From: an uncultured Candidatus Binatia bacterium
GTDB taxonomy: Bacteria > Desulfobacterota > Binatia > Bin18
DNA length: 64,000 nt
Reading direction: 5' to 3'
Assembly (NCBI GenBank): GCA_965243855.1
Contig: CBDEWE010000003.1
Location: forward strand, 1,474,610-1,538,609
Shown: positions 4,795 through 46,565 of the stretch, in pieces
Layout of the letters: the number at the start of each line of letters is the position of its first letter
Position numbering within the stretch: the first letter of the stretch is position 1
Position numbers and translations under genes: made by a program
The notes under the pieces: model-generated
Told to the model about the DNA's origin: nothing
Seen by the model: the letters and a program-made list of their open reading frames with translations, nothing else
Database searches by the model: none

Positions 4795-5346
4795 CTACGA
4801 TTGTTCCCGTGGCAGAATATGGGAGAACTCGTACTCGTTGACGTATTTGCCGACGGAGGCTTCAAATTCGTCTTCGTCCCACTGTTCGATGGTCAGGGTG
4901 TGGTCTTCCGACGCGTCCATATAATCCCAATAGATCATCTCATCGCCGGCAACCCGGCCGTTGGGATGATAATAGCCGGCCCCACTTTCGGCTAACCGAA
5001 AACGTATGCCTTGATATTCGATTTCCTCAGGCGGATCGTCATGCTGCTTAATATGCGCCCGAACACCTTGACCCAGGGCTGAAAAATCTATTTTGCGAGA
5101 GATATTCCATTCGACGCCATCGTCCTCTTCGCGCTCGAGGAAGAGCGCATCGTCCCCGGCGTCGAGTTCCCACTCCTGCGTCTTGGTGTCGTCAAAGGTA
5201 TAGTTATTCTGACTTTTGACCTGCCAGGTCTTGAGGTCATAGTCGACCAGATAGCCGACTTTCAGGTTTGAGAGGGTGAGATCACTGAGCGGGTCGATAT
5301 CCACTTGCTCGTCTTTTTTGCCAAAGAGTTTCTTCCAGAGAGACAT
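4795..5346 (-). CDS. DUF4178 domain protein
   Basis: Acidic, Trp-rich soluble protein starting MSLWKKLFGKK. Length and motif pattern are typical of DUF4178 proteins that accompany DUF350/SpeE-like and PspA genes. Start chosen at the internal Met. Confidence 0.5.
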   Translation of the reverse strand: MSLWKKLFGKKDEQVDIDPLSDLTLSNLKVGYLVDYDLKTWQVKSQNNYTFDDTKTQEWELDAGDDALFLEREEDDGVEWNISRKIDFSALGQGVRAHIKQHDDPPEEIEYQGIRFRLAESGAGYYHPNGRVAGDEMIYWDYMDASEDHTLTIEQWDEDEFEASVGKYVNEYEFSHILPREQS

Positions 5347-6420: not shown

Positions 6421-6809
6421 GTATAGGAGAGTAATTCTCCCGCATTCTCGGCCAAAGCCAAACTCAGTGCTTCAATCGAGCCTTCCAACTCATTGCTGTC
6501 CAGATTCTCGATGCGTAGCGTGTCACGAAAAAGGATGGTCTGCGTCTCTTCGTCCACCACAAAGGCGCCATGCACCAGAAGCCGGTTCATCTGCAGCAGG
6601 CGCCGGAATAAATTCCCCGGCTCCTGCGGAATGGGCATAATGACCTGCTCCAACACGAGCAGGGGGTCTTCGCAGTCAACGATGAGGTTGTTGATGCCGC
6701 TGTCTTCGTCATCGACGATAAACAACTCCTGGCCTTCGTCCTCTTGCGAAATCGCATAACCTAAATCAATCAGCAGCGATTTTACTTTCCCAAAATACTC
6801 TGACGGCAT
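6396..6809 (-). CDS. YbjN-domain protein (putative sensory transduction regulator fold)
   Basis: About 137 aa, acidic, with a YbjN-like pattern (GYAISQEDEGQELFIVDDEDS...LLVLEQVIMP). A GGAGGA ribosome-binding site sits 8 nt upstream of the Met at 6809. Confidence 0.55.
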   Translation of the reverse strand: MPSEYFGKVKSLLIDLGYAISQEDEGQELFIVDDEDSGINNLIVDCEDPLLVLEQVIMPIPQEPGNLFRRLLQMNRLLVHGAFVVDEETQTILFRDTLRIENLDSNELEGSIEALSLALAENAGELLSYTKSKRVLQ

Positions 6810-27632: not shown

Positions 27633-27699
27633 AGTCAGACGCTACCTAAAGTACGGATATCGTCATGAATCCTTTTCGCAGTCAAGCGCCGTGGGTGTT

Positions 27700-27786
27700 T
27701 GTTGAGTCGGTTGAGTCTTGACCCAAAAGACTCAAAAGACTCAAAAGACTCAATAGACTCAATAGACCCAATAGACCCAAAAGACT
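27700..27786. repeat. family-B tandem-9-mer palindromic element, copy 1
   Basis: GTTGAGTCG GTTGAGTCT TGACCCAAAA then GACTCAAAA x3, GACTCAATA x2, GACCCAATA, GACCCAAAA. The left 9-mers are the reverse complement of the right 9-mers. Lies upstream of coxL. Confidence 0.9.
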
Positions 27787-27815
27787 TCCTTTGCCTATGG
27801 GAGCGAGTGAGTGGG

Positions 27816-29879: not shown

Positions 29880-32144
29880 ATGATCATCACGAGTGTCCAC
29901 GCGAAAAATGTGCTGCGTTATGCGGAATTGAAGCTGACGAATCTCCCCCGGCAGGGAGTGATTGGCATAAGCGGTGCCAATGAATCCGGCAAAACGACCA
30001 TTGCCGAGATTCTGTGTCTGGCATTGTTTGGCCGGACGTTCTCTCACGCTGAGAGCGATTTCCAAAAAAACATCAAGTGGGGCGAGTTTGGCGCTTCAAT
30101 CTCTGTTGGCTTTCTTGCCAAGGATAAACACAGCTATTTGGTGACTCGCTCTTTTGATGCGGACGGGAATCACTTGGCTCAGCTTCGCAGGGACAGGGAA
30201 GACGAGCCCTTTGTCCGTGGAGCCGCTGCGGTGAACGAGAATGTGGCCCAACTATGTGGTTTTACCTATCAACGTTTTATTGATTCCTTTTATTTAGCCC
30301 AGCGCAATATCGCATCTCCGTCCATTCTCCTCCAGACCGCCAAGGCGTTGGCAGGGGTTGAAACCTTTGAGCAGGTAGCGACTGAATGTGAGTCCGATAT
30401 CCACGCCCTCCAGGAAGAACTCGCCCCTCTGCACAGCGGTCTTGCCGAGGCTCGCCGGCAGCGCAGTGAACTCAATATCCAGGCTGATGCGTTGCCCAAT
30501 TTGAAGACCGAACAGAACGCACAAACCACCGCCATGGCTGAGCGAAAAAAAGAGAATACGGTCCGTCAGCTGACGCTCGACCGTCTGCGCGCTGCAACCA
30601 CAGAGATGGCTGAGCAAGTGAAAAAGACGATGCAGGCCACTCTCGATGTCAGCTTGAAGCAGTGGCTCCATTATGCGGAGAATATCGATACGGTCACACA
30701 AAACGTCGACGCGGCGAGCGAAGGGGCAGAATCCGGTTCGGGTCAACGGCTGACTGGGGCGCTCCAGTCTTGGCGTGACGATTTGCGCAAGCGCCTTGAA
30801 GCTTTTACCCCGGTGCGTAACGCGACAGCCACGTATCGCCAACGTTTGGCCTGGCTCATTGGCCAGGGAGAGCGGCCGGCCGAGGTCGACACTCATGCGC
30901 GCTCTTTACCCGACCAGAGAGCATTTCTCCTCAGTCAGGGGGAAGAAATACGCGGGAAGCGGACCGGCCCTATTATCGGCTTTTTTGGCGCGTTTCTGTT
31001 GATGATTATGAGTTGGAGCGCACTCTGGTTTCTGAACTATATGCCAGACCACGCCATTGGACAGTGGCTCAGCAACGGCTTGCAACTACAGGTGACGCAT
31101 ACCACTGTGCTTCTCCTGGTCGCCGCAGTCTCCAGCGGACTGAGCCTGGTGTTGCTTGTTATGGTTTTCCTTCTGACGGAGCGGATTCTGACTGCGCGGC
31201 AGAGGGCCGCCCGCCTCCAGTCCGACCAAGAAGAAACCAAAGTCCAACTCCAAAGTTTAGATGACCTTCCTCAGCAGTCCCTGGCAACGGAGGTGGCGAA
31301 GCTTGATGCCTATGCTGATCCGCAATTGAAAGAGGCTCTGACCCAGTTTGTCAGTGGTCCCGGTGTGTCGCTGCTTGATGCAGAATCGCTCGCAGCGTTT
31401 CTTGCTCCGCTGGAGGCCGCGAGCCTCACCTGCCAGGAGGACGCTGACGCTATCACCAGACGGATAACTGGAGAAATCCGGTCTGTTGAGACGAATTTGG
31501 TTGCCATACAACAAGACCTGGAGCGTCTGGATCAGGCCATTACGGAAGAAGATCGTCGCCTCAATAAAGCGGCGCAACTGGACCAGGAGATCGCTGCGTT
31601 CGAAAAGGATATTGATGGTAAAACTCACAGTATTGAAGTACGGCGAATCGCACAAAATCTCCTCACTGGCTCACACCGTCGTTTACTGAGCCGGTTTAAC
31701 CTGGAGATGCGGCACGTTGTGAGTAAAATCATGCCGCAACTCACTGAGGGGCGCTACGAGACCATGCAGATCGATAACGACCTCAACGTCCGGGTATGGT
31801 CTAGTGAAAAGGGTCATTTTGTTGATCTGAACGAAATTTCGGGAGGCACCTATAATCAGGTCATGCTGGCGATCCGTCTCGCCTTGTCGCAAGCCCTGAT
31901 TACCTCGTCGCTGTGTGGCGTTGAGTGCCTAATTCTCGATGAGCCGTTCGCCTTTTTTGACGCCCAGCGTACCCAAAAGACTCTGGAAATTTTGCCTCAG
32001 GTTAGTCCTGAAATCGAACAGATGTGGATTATTGCTCAGCGGTTTGATGACAACAGCCCTTTCGCCATGCACCTGAGTTGCTCACGGGACTCGGAGGTTT
32101 TGATCGCCCCAGTGGGTGAATATGAGGCGTTGGAGGAGGGATAA
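29880..32144 (+). CDS. membrane-anchored SMC/Rad50/SbcC-family ATPase (YhaN/SbcE-like)
   Basis: N-terminal Walker A GISGANESGKTT. C-terminal ABC signature ISGGTYNQ and Walker B CLILDEP. Long coiled-coil arms are interrupted by two hydrophobic TM helices (aa ~365-385 and ~405-430). Confidence 0.7.
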   Translation: MIITSVHAKNVLRYAELKLTNLPRQGVIGISGANESGKTTIAEILCLALFGRTFSHAESDFQKNIKWGEFGASISVGFLAKDKHSYLVTRSFDADGNHLAQLRRDREDEPFVRGAAAVNENVAQLCGFTYQRFIDSFYLAQRNIASPSILLQTAKALAGVETFEQVATECESDIHALQEELAPLHSGLAEARRQRSELNIQADALPNLKTEQNAQTTAMAERKKENTVRQLTLDRLRAATTEMAEQVKKTMQATLDVSLKQWLHYAENIDTVTQNVDAASEGAESGSGQRLTGALQSWRDDLRKRLEAFTPVRNATATYRQRLAWLIGQGERPAEVDTHARSLPDQRAFLLSQGEEIRGKRTGPIIGFFGAFLLMIMSWSALWFLNYMPDHAIGQWLSNGLQLQVTHTTVLLLVAAVSSGLSLVLLVMVFLLTERILTARQRAARLQSDQEETKVQLQSLDDLPQQSLATEVAKLDAYADPQLKEALTQFVSGPGVSLLDAESLAAFLAPLEAASLTCQEDADAITRRITGEIRSVETNLVAIQQDLERLDQAITEEDRRLNKAAQLDQEIAAFEKDIDGKTHSIEVRRIAQNLLTGSHRRLLSRFNLEMRHVVSKIMPQLTEGRYETMQIDNDLNVRVWSSEKGHFVDLNEISGGTYNQVMLAIRLALSQALITSSLCGVECLILDEPFAFFDAQRTQKTLEILPQVSPEIEQMWIIAQRFDDNSPFAMHLSCSRDSEVLIAPVGEYEALEEG

Positions 32145-32150
32145 GGGTCC

Positions 32151-32225
32151 TTTGAGTCGATTGAGTCCATTGAGTCCATGAGGCTCAACAGACCCAACAG
32201 ACCCAACAAACTCAATAGGCCCATA
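32151..32225. repeat. family-B element, copy 2
   Basis: TTGAGTCGA TTGAGTCCA TTGAGTCCA TGAGGCTCAACA GACCCAACA GACCCAACA AACTCAATA GGCCCAT. Lies between the SMC-like ATPase and acyl-CoA dehydrogenase genes. Confidence 0.9.
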
Positions 32226-36488: not shown

Positions 36489-39400
36489 ATGTTAGCACGT
36501 TTGGCACAGAAAATTTTTGGGAGCAAAAACGAACGCGAGCTCAAGCGCATGCGCCCGTTAGTGGCAGAGATCGGGCAGCTTGAACCTGAACTGCAACCGC
36601 TCAGCATGGATGAGCTGCGAGCGAAAACGGATATATTCCGCAGCCGAATCCAAGATGCCACTGCAGCGACACGTGTACAGTTGGATGAGATTGCACAGCA
36701 GGCGGCCGAGATTGCTCCAGAAGGTGTCCCTGACGCAGATGAGCTGGAGAAGTTGGACTACTTCCAAGAGGAACGAACCAGCCTGGAAAAAGAACTTCGC
36801 GCGGCGGAAGCTGATGTGCTTGACGATATTCTGCCCGAAGCCTATGCGACCGTCCGCGAAGTCTCGCGTCGGGTCACCAGCATGCGCCATTTTGATAGCC
36901 AACTCCTTGGCGGCATTGTCCTCCATCAGGGCCGTATTGCCGAGATGAAAACGGGCGAGGGAAAGACGCTGGTTGCAACCCTGCCGCTCTATCTCAACGC
37001 CCTACTCGGTCGTGGCTCACATCTGGTAACGGTCAACGACTATCTGGCCCGCCGTGATGTGCAGTGGATGGGGCCTATTTATCATGCCCTTGGGCTATCC
37101 GTTGCTTCTATCGTACACGACGCGAGTTTTATCTTTGACCCGACTCATGTGGTCAAAGATTATCGGTATATGAATCTTCGTCCGGTCAGCCGCAAAGAGG
37201 CATATGCGGCCGATATCACCTATGGAACGAATAACGAATACGGCTTCGACTACTTACGCGATAATATGAAGTTCAACCTTGAAGATTATGTTCAGCGTGA
37301 ATTGCATTTTGCCATTGTTGATGAAGTGGATAACATCCTGATTGACGAAGCTCGGACGCCACTGATTATTTCCGGTCCGGCAGAAGAATCCACACAGAAG
37401 TATTACTCGCTCAATCGGGTCATTCCGCGTCTCCAGCGTGAGGTCGATTACGCTATTGACGAAAAACTCAGAACCGCAACGCTCACCGAAGAGGGGGTCG
37501 CGAAAGTTGAGCGTATTCTCGGCGTGCGCAACCTGTACGACCCGTCTGAGATCGGGACCTTGCACCATGTCAACCAGGCGCTGAAAGCGCATGCCATTTT
37601 TAAGCGCGACGTTGATTATGTGATTAAGGATGGCGAAGTCGTCATCGTTGATGAATTTACCGGTCGTCTCATGCCCGGCCGACGCTGGTCGGATGGGCTG
37701 CATCAAGCCGTCGAAGCCAAGGAGGGCGTCCGGATTCGTGAGGAAAATCAAACTCTTGCGAGCATAACGATTCAGAATTACTTCCGCATGTACGATAAAT
37801 TGGGAGGCATGACTGGGACGGCGGATACGGAGGCGGTTGAATTCAAGAAGATCTACGATCTTGATGTGGTGGTGATTCCACCCAATCGTCCCATGGTCCG
37901 GATGGATCATCCTGACATGGTGTACAAGACCGAGCGCGAGAAATTCGAGGCAGTGATTGCCGATATCCTCGACTGCCACGAGCGGGGACAACCCGTATTG
38001 GTCGGTACAATTTCAGTCGAGAAGTCCGAATATCTCAGCAGACTCCTCAAGAGAAAAAAGGTCAAGCACAATGTCCTCAATGCGGTTAACCACGAAGCTG
38101 AGGCGAACATTATTGCCCAGGCGGGTCGTTTTGGTGCGGTGACTATTGCCACGAATATGGCTGGTCGGGGGACTGATATTTTGCTTGGTGGAAACCCGGA
38201 ATTCCTGGCCCGCTCCGATATTGAAAAAAAATGGGTCAATAAGGCCAGTGCCGCCCGGACCAAGAAAGGCGCAAAGACAGCGGCCACAACAGAAAAGAGT
38301 TACGAAGACCAACTAGAAGAAATCCGCGCAGAGTATAATGCTGCGACCGCCCAGGCCCAGGAAAAATATGAGCCTCAATGGACTCCTTTCGAGGAGGCCC
38401 GTAATGCGGCATTGAAACGGATGACGGAGACCTATCGCCCCTATCTCCACGCTACGCTGCAGAAAGCTCGGGTCGACTATGGGGAGGCTGCGCGTGTGTT
38501 CGTTGGGCCGGTTGAGTCCGTTGAGTCATCGAGTCGGTTGAGTCTTGACCCCAAAGACCCTAAAGACTCAACAGACCCAAAAGACCTCCCTATGGAGACG
38601 TATAGCCAAGCACGGGAAGCGTATGAGTCGGCATTGTCAGAATATGACAAGGTGGTCGGTCCAGCGCTGAATGAAGAGCAACAACAAGACTATGAGACTG
38701 CGCGTACCGATTTTATTGCGGTATTGACTGAAGATGGGATGGAGGAGGGAGAGGCGTCTGAACGCCTTAACCTCAACCGAAACCGCTACGAAGATTGGCT
38801 AGAAGATTACTGTCAGTCCATTATTCAGATGGCTGGCTTAGCTCTGAGTGAAAACGACCGGGTACAAGAGGTATATGAAGCCGCCCGCCAGGCGTATGAA
38901 GAAAACCAACAAGCCTACCAGGATGCTGATCAACGCTATGAGGAGGCGCGTAAGCCGTATGAAGCCGCTGTCGCTGAGGCAGAGCGTGTGTACGAGCAAC
39001 AGCGCAAGGATCATGTCCAGGTCATAGAAGAGGTCAGGGAACAGCTTGAGAAAGCACCTGACGCGTATAGCCAGGATTTCAACGAAATTCTTGAGAAGTA
39101 CGAGAAAACGTGCGGCGAGGAGCGAGAAAAGGTTGTTGCTGCCGGTGGTGTACACATTTTGGGCACTGAGCGTCACGAGTCTCGAAGAATTGATAACCAA
39201 CTCCGCGGGCGCGCGGGACGCCAGGGAGACCCTGGTTCATCCAGATTTTTCCTCTCCCTGGAAGATGACCTCCTGCGTATTTTTGGCGCAGAGCGCGTAC
39301 AGAAAATAATGGACCGGCTGGGCATGGAAGAGGGGGAACCCATAGAAGCCGGACTCGTCACCCGGGCTATCGAAAATGCCCAGGGGCGAGTCGAGGGCCA

Positions 39401-40226
39401 TAACTTCGATATCCGAAAACATCTGCTGGAATATGATGATGTGATTAACAAACAGCGTGAAGTCATCTATGAGCAGCGCCGGGGATTCCTGGCCGGTGAA
39501 AATTTGAAAGGTCAGGTACTGGAAATTGTTGAAGAGATGGCTGAAGAAAGTGTGCTGAACTATGCGGATAAAGGAATCGACCCGGCGGAGTGGGACTGGA
39601 AAGGGCTTGATGACACGGTGTTTCGCCAATTCAATATGCGTCTTGGCTTGAGTGAGGAACAGCAAGAAGAGCTGATAACGGAAGATCTCCAGGACCTTGT
39701 GCGAGACCGGGCGCTCCAACACTATGAAGAACGAGAACAGGCTTTTACACCACCTGTTATGCGGTATCTCGAAAAGGTGATCATGCTACAAACCATGGAC
39801 AGTCTGTGGAAAGACCACCTGTTTGCCATGGACCACCTTAAAGAGGGGATTGGTCTGCGCGGCTACGGTCAGAAAAACCCCCTGCAAGAGTACAAGAAAG
39901 AGGCATTCAGTCTGTTCGACGACCTCTCCCGTCGGATGCAGGAAGATATTGTTGAAAAGCTCTATAGCGTCCAGGTGGCCCGCCAGGAAGATGTCCAGCG
40001 GATGGAGGAAGGGCAGGCTGCACAACGGCCTATGCAGATGATGCACGGCGGACAGGCAACGCTCCAACAACCACAGTCGGCAACACGACCTATGCAGGGG
40101 GGACCGAATGGACAGCCACAGACGGAACGACCTGTCCAAGCCGTACGGGATACGCCCAAGGTTGGTCGGAACGCACCCTGTCCGTGTGGTAGCGGCAAGA
40201 AATACAAGAAGTGTCACGGCGCATGA
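36489..40226 (+). CDS. secA: preprotein translocase ATPase SecA, with a ~300-aa insertion in NBD2 and a C-terminal zinc finger
   Basis: [21 protein letters not shown] start. DEAD-motor motifs ([13 protein letters not shown]; DEVD; [10 protein letters not shown]; [27 protein letters not shown]). C-terminal [14 protein letters not shown]. 1245 aa versus about 900 aa for typical SecA. Confidence 0.95.
38511..38586. repeat. family-B element, copy 3, inside the secA coding sequence and in frame
   Basis: GTTGAGTCC GTTGAGTCA TCGAGTCG GTTGAGTCT TGACCCCAAAGACCCTAAAGACTCAACAGACCCAAAAGAC, translated as [25 protein letters not shown] within SecA. Confidence 0.9.
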
Positions 40227-40244
40227 TAGAATCAGAGCCAAGCT

Positions 40245-46017: not shown

Positions 46018-46085
46018 CGCGGTAGGCCGGTCGTCGGAGGACGCTCTTGATCCACGCAAGCCGTGTCAGCTACCCTGTATGTGTT

Positions 46086-46178
46086 CGTTGAGTCCGTTGA
46101 GTCTTTAGGGTCTTTGGGGTCAAGACTCAACAGACCCAATGACTCAACAGACCCAATGACTCAACAGACCCGAAAGAC
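46086..46178. repeat. family-B element, copy 4
   Basis: GTTGAGTCC GTTGAGTCT TTAGGGTCTTTGGGGTCAAGACTCAACAGACCCAAT GACTCAACAGACCCAAT GACTCAACAGACCCGAAAGAC. Lies between gatC and yraN. Confidence 0.9.
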
Positions 46179-46184
46179 ATCGTT

Positions 46185-46565
46185 ATGGTGAGAGGCGACC
46201 GGCGACGCCTGTTCGGCCAACACGGCGAGCAACGCGCCGCACAGTTTTTACAGAGCCTCGGCTATAGGATAGTGAACCGAAATTATCGATGCCCTCGCGG
46301 AGAAATTGATCTCGTTGCGCAGGATAAAGGAACCATTGTCTTCGTGGAGGTTCGGACGCACCGCTCTCAGGAGTTCGGAAACCCTCTCGCCTCAGTAAAC
46401 AAGCGGAAGCAACGCCAAATCGCCATGACTGCCCTCCATTATCTTTCACGTTTTCACCTCCATGACCACGCTGCACGATTTGACGTCATTGGAATTATAG
46501 GGGAAGGAGAGGCTGCGCAGCTGACCCATATCAAAGAGGCTTTTGAATTCCCAATCTCACGATAA
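46185..46565 (+). CDS. yraN: YraN family (UPF0102) endonuclease-like protein
   Basis: About 126 aa with a PD-(D/E)xK-like core (GEIDLVAQDKGTIVFVEVRTHR). Confidence 0.8.
   Translation: MVRGDRRRLFGQHGEQRAAQFLQSLGYRIVNRNYRCPRGEIDLVAQDKGTIVFVEVRTHRSQEFGNPLASVNKRKQRQIAMTALHYLSRFHLHDHAARFDVIGIIGEGEAAQLTHIKEAFEFPISR

Follow-up and report, generated by a model that had tools for sequence, protein, structure and literature searches.

The secA gene in a 64,000-nucleotide (nt) stretch of DNA from an uncultured Candidatus Binatia bacterium (contig CBDEWE010000003.1, positions 1,474,610 to 1,538,609; this whole stretch is referred to as the window) encodes a SecA protein with a greatly extended second nucleotide-binding domain, NBD2. 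Judged by its site and its flanking helices, the extra block is a lineage-specific enlargement, by about 280 residues, of the variable (VAR) subdomain of NBD2. The E. coli VAR is smaller by a factor of about nine, and the largest VAR of any solved SecA by a factor of at least four. The block probably, though not securely, has a function, as a regulatory or docking arm derived from the VAR.

Site, size and distribution of the VAR block

By its domain content the protein is a housekeeping SecA1-type SecA, with NBD1, NBD2, PPXD, the helical scaffold and wing, and the SEC-C tail all present. The Pfam matches are SecA_DEAD (E = 4.9e-121), P-loop_SecA (1.1e-91), SecA_SW (1.3e-67) and SecA_PP_bind (3.2e-46), and phmmer against the SecA chains of the Protein Data Bank (PDB) matches the product to E. 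coli SecA with E = 4.9e-262. The Walker A (MKTGEGKT) and DEVD motifs are legible in the translation. The SEC-C zinc motif, usually missing from accessory SecA2 proteins, was located at residues 1227–1244 (PF02810, E = 4.8e-10), and the zinc-domain peptides 1sx0 and 1ozb also match. The coordinates of the features discussed here are given in Table 1.

The alignment with E. coli SecA falls into two parts, which pair query residues 106–569 with E. coli 47–510 and query residues 866–1184 with E. coli 524–846, so that the ~283 additional residues form one block rather than scattered insertions and deletions (indels). The block is located between helicase motifs V and VI of NBD2 and breaks the Pfam P-loop_SecA domain into two stretches. 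The two motifs that flank the VAR are separated by 317 residues in the query, compared with 34 in E. coli, ~72 in T. thermophilus, ~45 in M. tuberculosis and 0–2 in B. subtilis and T. maritima, a range of 0–72 in the solved SecA structures. The VAR subdomain of NBD2/IRA2 comprises residues ~519–547 of E. coli SecA, according to PMC6620043, which cites Das et al. 2012 (J Bacteriol 194:2205). Query residues 570–583 pair with T. thermophilus 589–602 (GGNPEYLAAALLEKE), and residues ~863–885 pair with T. thermophilus 636–661, M. tuberculosis 548–575 and E. coli 524–545. Since the first and last helices of the block align with VAR helices of solved SecA proteins, the novelty resides in the ~265 residues between them. 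An earlier note, made from the letters of this DNA alone, had proposed a single contiguous insert in NBD2 between 38100 and 39200 and had counted about 330 residues there, as against about 35 in E. coli. The count was essentially right, and the alignment places one contiguous insert of ~280–300 residues within that interval.

Table 1 Features of the secA gene and of repeat elements in the window (positions of the whole stretch; aa, amino acids).
Feature	Position	Strand	Basis or remark
secA, 1245 aa	36489..40226	+	Housekeeping type; SecA_DEAD, PP_bind, P-loop_SecA, SecA_SW, C-terminal SEC-C zinc motif
Second lineage-specific insert, N-terminal region of NBD1, aa 56–105, ~50 aa	36654..36803	+	phmmer, AlphaFold2, charge
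Whole VAR region of NBD2, aa 569–885, 317 aa	38193..39143	+	phmmer vs PDB SecA, motif spacing
First VAR helix, aa 570–591	38196..38261	+	NPEFLA...; aligns with the start of the longer VARs in T. thermophilus and M. tuberculosis
Lineage-specific middle of arm, aa 592–856, 265 aa	38262..39056	+	Net charge -26; no Pfam family
Long helix 1, aa 605–672, 68 residues	38301..38504	+	AlphaFold2; conserved Tyr 605, 616, 627, 664
Long helix 5, aa 789–855, 67 residues	38853..39053	+	Heptad Tyr ladder Y796, Y803, Y810, Y817, Y824, Y835 (xxAYEEAxx)
Last VAR helix, aa 857–884	39057..39140	+	Aligns with VAR C-terminal helix of E. coli, T. thermophilus, M. tuberculosis
Family-B element, in frame in secA, aa ~669–701	~38494..38591	+	9-nt units GTTGAGTCN, then NGACYCAAN
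Family-B copy, divergent intergenic region	27695..27800		Hairpin z = -4.6
Family-B copy, between stop codon 32144 and start codon 32240	32144..32215		Hairpin z = -4.4
Family-B copy, intergenic, just 5' of ATG 46185	46071..46191		69 nt, 90% complementary to secA copy
Family-A copies	5449, 6366, 8694, 13207, 23476, 29806, 33392, 45964, 50676	both orientations	

The block profile matches 104 species-representative genomes, many of them assembled to chromosome level. Eighty of these, nearly all labelled Candidatus Binatia, were kept; they were retrieved with the VAR block itself as the probe, by which Binatia that lack the block would be missed. In the 70 genomes where both flanking motifs could be located the VAR measures 276–338 residues, with a median of 282, in line with the length polymorphism that the earlier note had foreseen. 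The best 120 full-length relatives are 1169–1269 residues long, apart from a few truncated gene calls, and share 59–95% overall identity, and the bulk of the arm is common to essentially all sampled Binatia at 30–50% identity. Three of the more distant relatives (L018, L019 and P0008) exhibit further loop expansions that bring the block to 337–338 residues, namely a G/K/S-rich run past the first VAR helix and, in the loop that matches query residue 783, a D-rich run (SPATADASDDRPPDNDTSADVDGADDDD).

A search with the block alone returned only SecA fragments, at 31–58% identity, from metagenome-assembled genomes (MAGs) labelled Candidatus Binatia or 'Deltaproteobacteria', and a word-based search with the insert profile also gave fragments only. 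When 1.84 billion representative proteins were searched exhaustively with the profile, 104 matches resulted, and the strong ones examined were SecA, with no relative outside SecA among them. The weak matches of this search are TPR_12 or coiled-coil proteins, and are read as compositional similarity. Pfam contains no family for the VAR insert. Identity with tetratricopeptide repeats (TPR) was considered and rejected, as the insert scores E = 0.95 with TPR_10 and E = 7.7 with TPR_14, and its tyrosine period is 7 or 11 residues rather than 34. Two SecA proteins of Candidatus Ratteibacteria, P0272 (1270 residues) and P0271 (1303 residues), carry a helical insert of ~375–420 residues at the same VAR site. 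In the whole-library search they match the Binatia profile with E = 1.9e-8 and 4.4e-6, and the pairwise identity is 22% over 389 columns. The Binatia are thus not strictly the only group with a giant VAR. No description of the Binatia block was found in the literature on SecA VAR/NBD2 insertions and on Binatota.

The extra length might have arisen from mis-assembly or a collapsed repeat, or might represent an intein or another selfish protein element. A repeat element does lie within the block, and several database gene calls for secA are truncated. However, the reading frame is intact and the same architecture recurs in more than 100 independent assemblies, complete chromosomes included, whereas the truncated calls, on long contigs, end at scattered places with frameshifted peptides and were for this reason treated as assembly errors, not as biology. 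An intein or other mobile protein element was rejected, as no Hint or endonuclease domain matches in Pfam at E <= 10 and the block is all-helical and acidic. The chance that any of these accounts for the block is very slight, and the artefact that the earlier note had named among the outcomes that would overturn its claim is contradicted by the 104 genomes. In one MAG (L081, JACPTR010000089.1), an in-frame TAG was observed within the VAR arm at 4950–4960 with the frame intact downstream, and secA is consequently annotated as two genes of 626 and 505 residues; the TAG may stem from a sequencing error, or the SecA may be split or made by stop-codon readthrough.

Predicted structure, selection and proposed role of the arm

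The insert was modelled by itself with AlphaFold2 (residues 566–890) from a 79-sequence alignment. The model has a mean predicted local distance difference test score (pLDDT) of 91.3 and a predicted template modelling score (pTM) of 0.77, and comprises seven helices: residues 570–591, 605–672, 700–723, 729–747, 753–782, 789–855 and 857–884. These helices are also confident in a full-length AlphaFold2 model, which was used for local confidence only. Foldseek comparison of the insert with the PDB retrieved generic long helical bundles only (BAR, SMC, ClyA and SH3BP5; E of at least 0.065, TM score of at most 0.24), and the full-length model returned SecA structures. The earlier note had described the insert as helical and long enough to form an extra coiled-coil domain. 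AlphaFold2 bears out the all-helical character, and with its two long helices, of 68 and 67 residues, predicted at pLDDT above 90, the length does suffice for an additional elongated, coiled-coil-like domain.

The block contains 20 tyrosine residues, 6.3% of its amino acids compared with 3.3% in the rest of the protein. In 13 of the 20 the next residue is E, D or Q (binomial p = 9e-4), so that the recurrence of YE motifs pointed out in the earlier note is a real enrichment. Successive tyrosines are spaced by 7 or 11 residues in 11 of 19 cases, a number that none of 20,000 shuffles reached. Across the family the tyrosine columns are conserved, with Tyr in 59–100% of sequences except at Y652 (39%), and the aromatic fraction of these columns is 0.72–1.0, with 13 of the 20 columns at 0.9 or above. 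The middle 265 residues of the query carry a net charge of -26, compared with a family mean of ~-17 to -20.

The ratio of nonsynonymous to synonymous substitution rates (dN/dS), estimated from 18 closely related species, is 0.039 for the SecA core, 0.122 for the whole VAR block and 0.52 for the segment occupied by the repeat element described below. The C-terminal third of the block (residues 791–885) is its most conserved third, with dN/dS of 0.079. The VAR block is under purifying selection. Across 20 close SecA sequences, indels occur only at residues 590–598, 672–700, 748–758 and 783 and in the C-terminal linker, and the four indel spots of the block are loops of the AlphaFold2 model. The term 'low-complexity', applied to the block in the earlier note, is thus misleading, since the domain is conserved, evolves under purifying selection (dN/dS 0.12) and has its indels limited to predicted loops.

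As a regulatory or docking arm, the block would be an elongated antiparallel bundle of helices, with a length of ~10 nm, projecting from NBD2 and anchored on the canonical VAR base, with each of the long helices spanning ~100 Å. Deletion of the VAR is reported to render the ATPase of E. coli SecA hyperactive, to speed up the release of ADP and to confer resistance to azide. The conserved base may retain this E. coli role, slowing ADP release and damping the ATPase, and the distal arm may act on a basic partner as a docking site or a steric element. The acidic charge of the arm makes anionic lipids or rRNA unlikely partners and favours a basic one, for which SecA's own C-terminal tail, basic with a charge of +6 over 81 residues, would be a candidate.

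Several observations weigh against a functional arm. By dN/dS the block evolves ~3 times faster than the core. It is an insertion hot spot and contains an in-frame TAG in one MAG. The full-length AlphaFold2 model (residues 1–1165) is globally poor, with pTM of 0.34, and neither the direction of the arm nor its contacts, such as with NBD1, the N-terminal insert or SecY, are readable from it. Neither a partner nor a catalytic motif was found in the profile search of representative proteins and in Pfam. Finally, the E. coli VAR is reportedly dispensable for growth, and so the arm, instead of being needed, could simply be tolerated. The alternative that follows is a passenger: a self-contained helical bundle at a permissive surface loop, under selection to stay folded and soluble, which adds nothing to activity. 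This is possible but rather unlikely. The reported dispensability and the missing partner and motif suit it, as do the fall of the block to ~30% identity where the rest of SecA retains 60–70%, and the acceptance of repeat elements, of D-rich and G/K-rich runs and of a stop codon. However, a passenger would not readily explain a near-constant length (median 282 residues) in at least 70 species, with no short VAR among the genomes recovered with the block as probe, nor dN/dS values of 0.12 for the block and 0.08 for its C-terminal third, nor the conservation of the tyrosine ladder and the acidic surface.

A functional VAR-derived arm thus remains the preferred reading. An extended version of it is offered as speculation and is unlikely to hold in all its parts: the acidic, tyrosine-zippered arm of ~10 nm would be a functional addition to the Sec motor (docking, dimerisation or autoinhibitory) in the Binatia and possibly, by descent, in the Ratteibacteria; it would engage a basic partner, either the C-terminal tail or clients, and alter the gating of ATP turnover; and its distal loops would serve as landing pads, at which mobile palindromic elements and recombination between species diversify an essential protein at no harm to it.

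Repeat elements and other features of the secA region

The earlier note had placed a repeat, termed family-B, inside the insert, and an in-frame copy is indeed present there (about 38494–38591, also delimited as 38495–38598). The element occurs in four copies in the 64 kb, three of them intergenic, and consists of GTTGAGTCN repeats followed by inverted NGACYCAAN units, with arms that are 87–90% complementary between copies. The intergenic copies are situated 10–30 nt 5' of start codons and form hairpins with z values of -4.4 to -4.6, and the secA copy folds less strongly (z = -1.7). The peptide encoded by the secA copy, (VES)n...(DPK)n, is poorly constrained and is predicted, with low confidence, as a loop past the first long helix. 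Each family-B unit includes a GAGTC/GACTC (GANTC) site, and the copies thereby constitute arrays of GANTC at 9-nt spacing.

The element is present at the same site and in the same frame, with differing unit numbers, in the query and in L001, L002, L003, L008 and L077. In L004, L005, L006, L010, L012 and L014 the orthologous site is occupied by QLIDTTHGSLSSAQLETY instead and the block measures 298 residues, and L007, L013 and L015 exhibit short forms. Alleles with the element exceed those without it by 19–27 residues, and since the unit is 9 nt the reading frame is kept at any unit number. The insertion replaces ~40 nt of ancestral sequence that is ~57% similar to the left end of the element (14 positions counted by eye), and neither a target-site duplication nor terminal repeats were seen in the alignment of secA orthologues. 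A metagenome scan for three tandem GTTGAGTCN units hit at least 120 stretches; among the 103 matches in the 80 loci listed, only one has the inverted arm downstream. The tandem pattern is therefore not specific to the element and is uninformative about its spread.

An unrelated, GC-rich palindromic element (GCCTGTCCTGAGCCTGTCCTGAGCCCCGTCGAAGGGCGAGGTCGAAGGG) was observed in frame in another VAR-arm loop, after AVLTE at ~query residue 748, in L009 and L011 (~6468–6590) and L007 (~6483), where it encodes ACPEPVLSPVEGRGRR or ACPEPVLSPVEGRGRRDG.

It was suggested in the earlier note that the insert had grown by repeat insertion or expansion. Taken to its full extent, the whole insert would have been built by repeated family-B insertion or by tandem expansion of a short YE unit. 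The in-frame family-B copy, with its variable unit number and its longer alleles, is consistent with such growth, as are the second, unrelated element (ACPEPVLSPVEGRGRR) in frame at another loop in three species, five tyrosines at exact heptad spacing, and a weak profile similarity between arm segments, including the long helices (hhalign probability 40–60%, E ~1e-4), which is obtained in biased helical sequence. However, sister species without the element still possess the 298-residue block, so that family-B explains ~20–30 residues in one sub-lineage and not the arm, and distant Binatia have blocks of 276–285 residues. Tandem Repeats Finder detects only the 9-nt units and one 12-nt repeat of 1.9 copies, and no DNA repeat that spans the block; the offset self-similarity of the block is no better than that of shuffles; and the element peptide is its least conserved and least confidently structured part. 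The growth suggested earlier thus holds for 19–27 residues in one sub-lineage and fails for the bulk, which is shared by element-free Binatia and shows no repeat at the DNA level. For the bulk of the block the repeat-growth model is largely refuted, and as an account of the whole insert it is improbable; both it and an assembly artefact are minor alternatives to a VAR-derived arm.

A second repeat family (A) is palindromic (AAAGAGTAAACGTGTCCAGCATCTG...TTGGAGGACACGTTTACTCTTT), ~55 nt long and present in at least nine copies in the window, in both orientations; it looks like a repetitive extragenic palindromic (REP) element or a miniature inverted-repeat transposable element (MITE). The secA gene is flanked in the window by a murI-like gene on one side and an argJ-like gene on the other. 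The secA–argJ spacer is free of elements in the window (40227–40244) and in L004, contains family-B in L001 (8037–8140) and L003 (8019–8125), and contains family-A in L077 (8052–8115) and L002 (8031–8075). From this polymorphism between sister species both families appear to have been recently mobile.

Species with and without the family-B element are interleaved on the tree of the secA core, and nearest neighbours are not the same for the secA core as for the VAR block when L001–L016 and L077 are compared with the window. The query is nearest to L004 in the core (4.8% difference), whereas just 5' of the element it is nearest to L077 (4.5%, compared with 9.4% for L004). Similarly, the L003 and L013 sequences are 1.7% apart in the core, whereas in the right half of the block their difference exceeds 12%. 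This mosaic signal in the aligned sequences suggests recombination in the secA region, or else chimeric MAGs.

The second lineage-specific insert, in the N-terminal region of NBD1, is acidic (net charge -9) and part of a predicted long helical hairpin formed by helices 40–75 and 83–130 (pLDDT ~90). Of 67 Binatia loci, 53 have this insert; the other 14 lack it and keep the VAR block, and the Ratteibacteria SecA also lack it. A coupling between the two inserts was accordingly rejected, and they are independent. NBD1 has a further insert of 18 residues (209–226; nt 37113–37166), shared by the Ratteibacteria, at the site of a 50-residue signature insert of Thermotogales/Aquificales. The C-terminal linker (residues 1165–1222; nt 39981–40154) is long, Q/P-rich and indel-prone, with dN/dS of 0.29. 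Promoter, terminator and Rfam scans detected nothing exceeding background.

Comparison with known systems

SecA is among the most studied bacterial motors, and the length of its VAR is polymorphic between lineages. To our knowledge, all mechanistic work on SecA employs proteins whose VAR is short or missing. An entire class of widespread uncultured environmental bacteria keeps a domain-sized, confidently predicted arm on NBD2, which offers a natural experiment on the coupling of the VAR site to the ATPase cycle and suggests that the Sec motor can bear an additional interaction platform. The block is also a clean signature of Binatia SecA and explains the gene length of ~1190–1270 codons. Compared with the E. 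coli VAR, it shares the insertion point, and its last helix aligns with the E. coli VAR; it differs in size (317 residues, compared with 34), in five additional helices, two of them of ~67 residues, in the tyrosine ladder and in the net charge of ~-26.

Clade-specific SecA inserts have been described in thermophiles, of 50 residues in Thermotogales/Aquificales and 76 residues in Thermales (Khadka, Persaud & Gupta 2019, PMC7023208), and these are the largest lineage-specific SecA inserts that we found described. Like the Binatia block, they are surface-exposed, reside in the ATPase motor and are kept across a whole lineage (PMC7023208). The Binatia block is 4–6 times larger, occupies a different site from the 50-residue insert, is all-helical and has no link to thermophily. 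The Ratteibacteria insert occupies the same site as the Binatia block. It is longer than the Binatia block, K/E-rich where the latter is A/E/Y-rich, and weakly similar to it over most of its length; the sequence resemblance may reflect either homology or convergence.

The family-B element of secA invites comparison with the Rickettsia palindromic elements (RPEs), which together with other intragenic MITEs sit in frame in housekeeping genes (PMC10969869). Like RPEs, family-B is a short, dispersed, palindromic and mostly intergenic element, of which one copy is in frame at a surface loop of an essential protein and absent from orthologues. It differs in its build, ~100 nt of 9-nt GTTGAGTCN units followed by inverted units, and in that its insertion took the place of ~40 nt of ancestral sequence instead of being a mere addition; the two are likened by architecture. 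If the analogy holds, 'selfish DNA in proteins' of the RPE type would not be confined to Rickettsia, and in family-B the 9-nt units would make insertion frame-safe.

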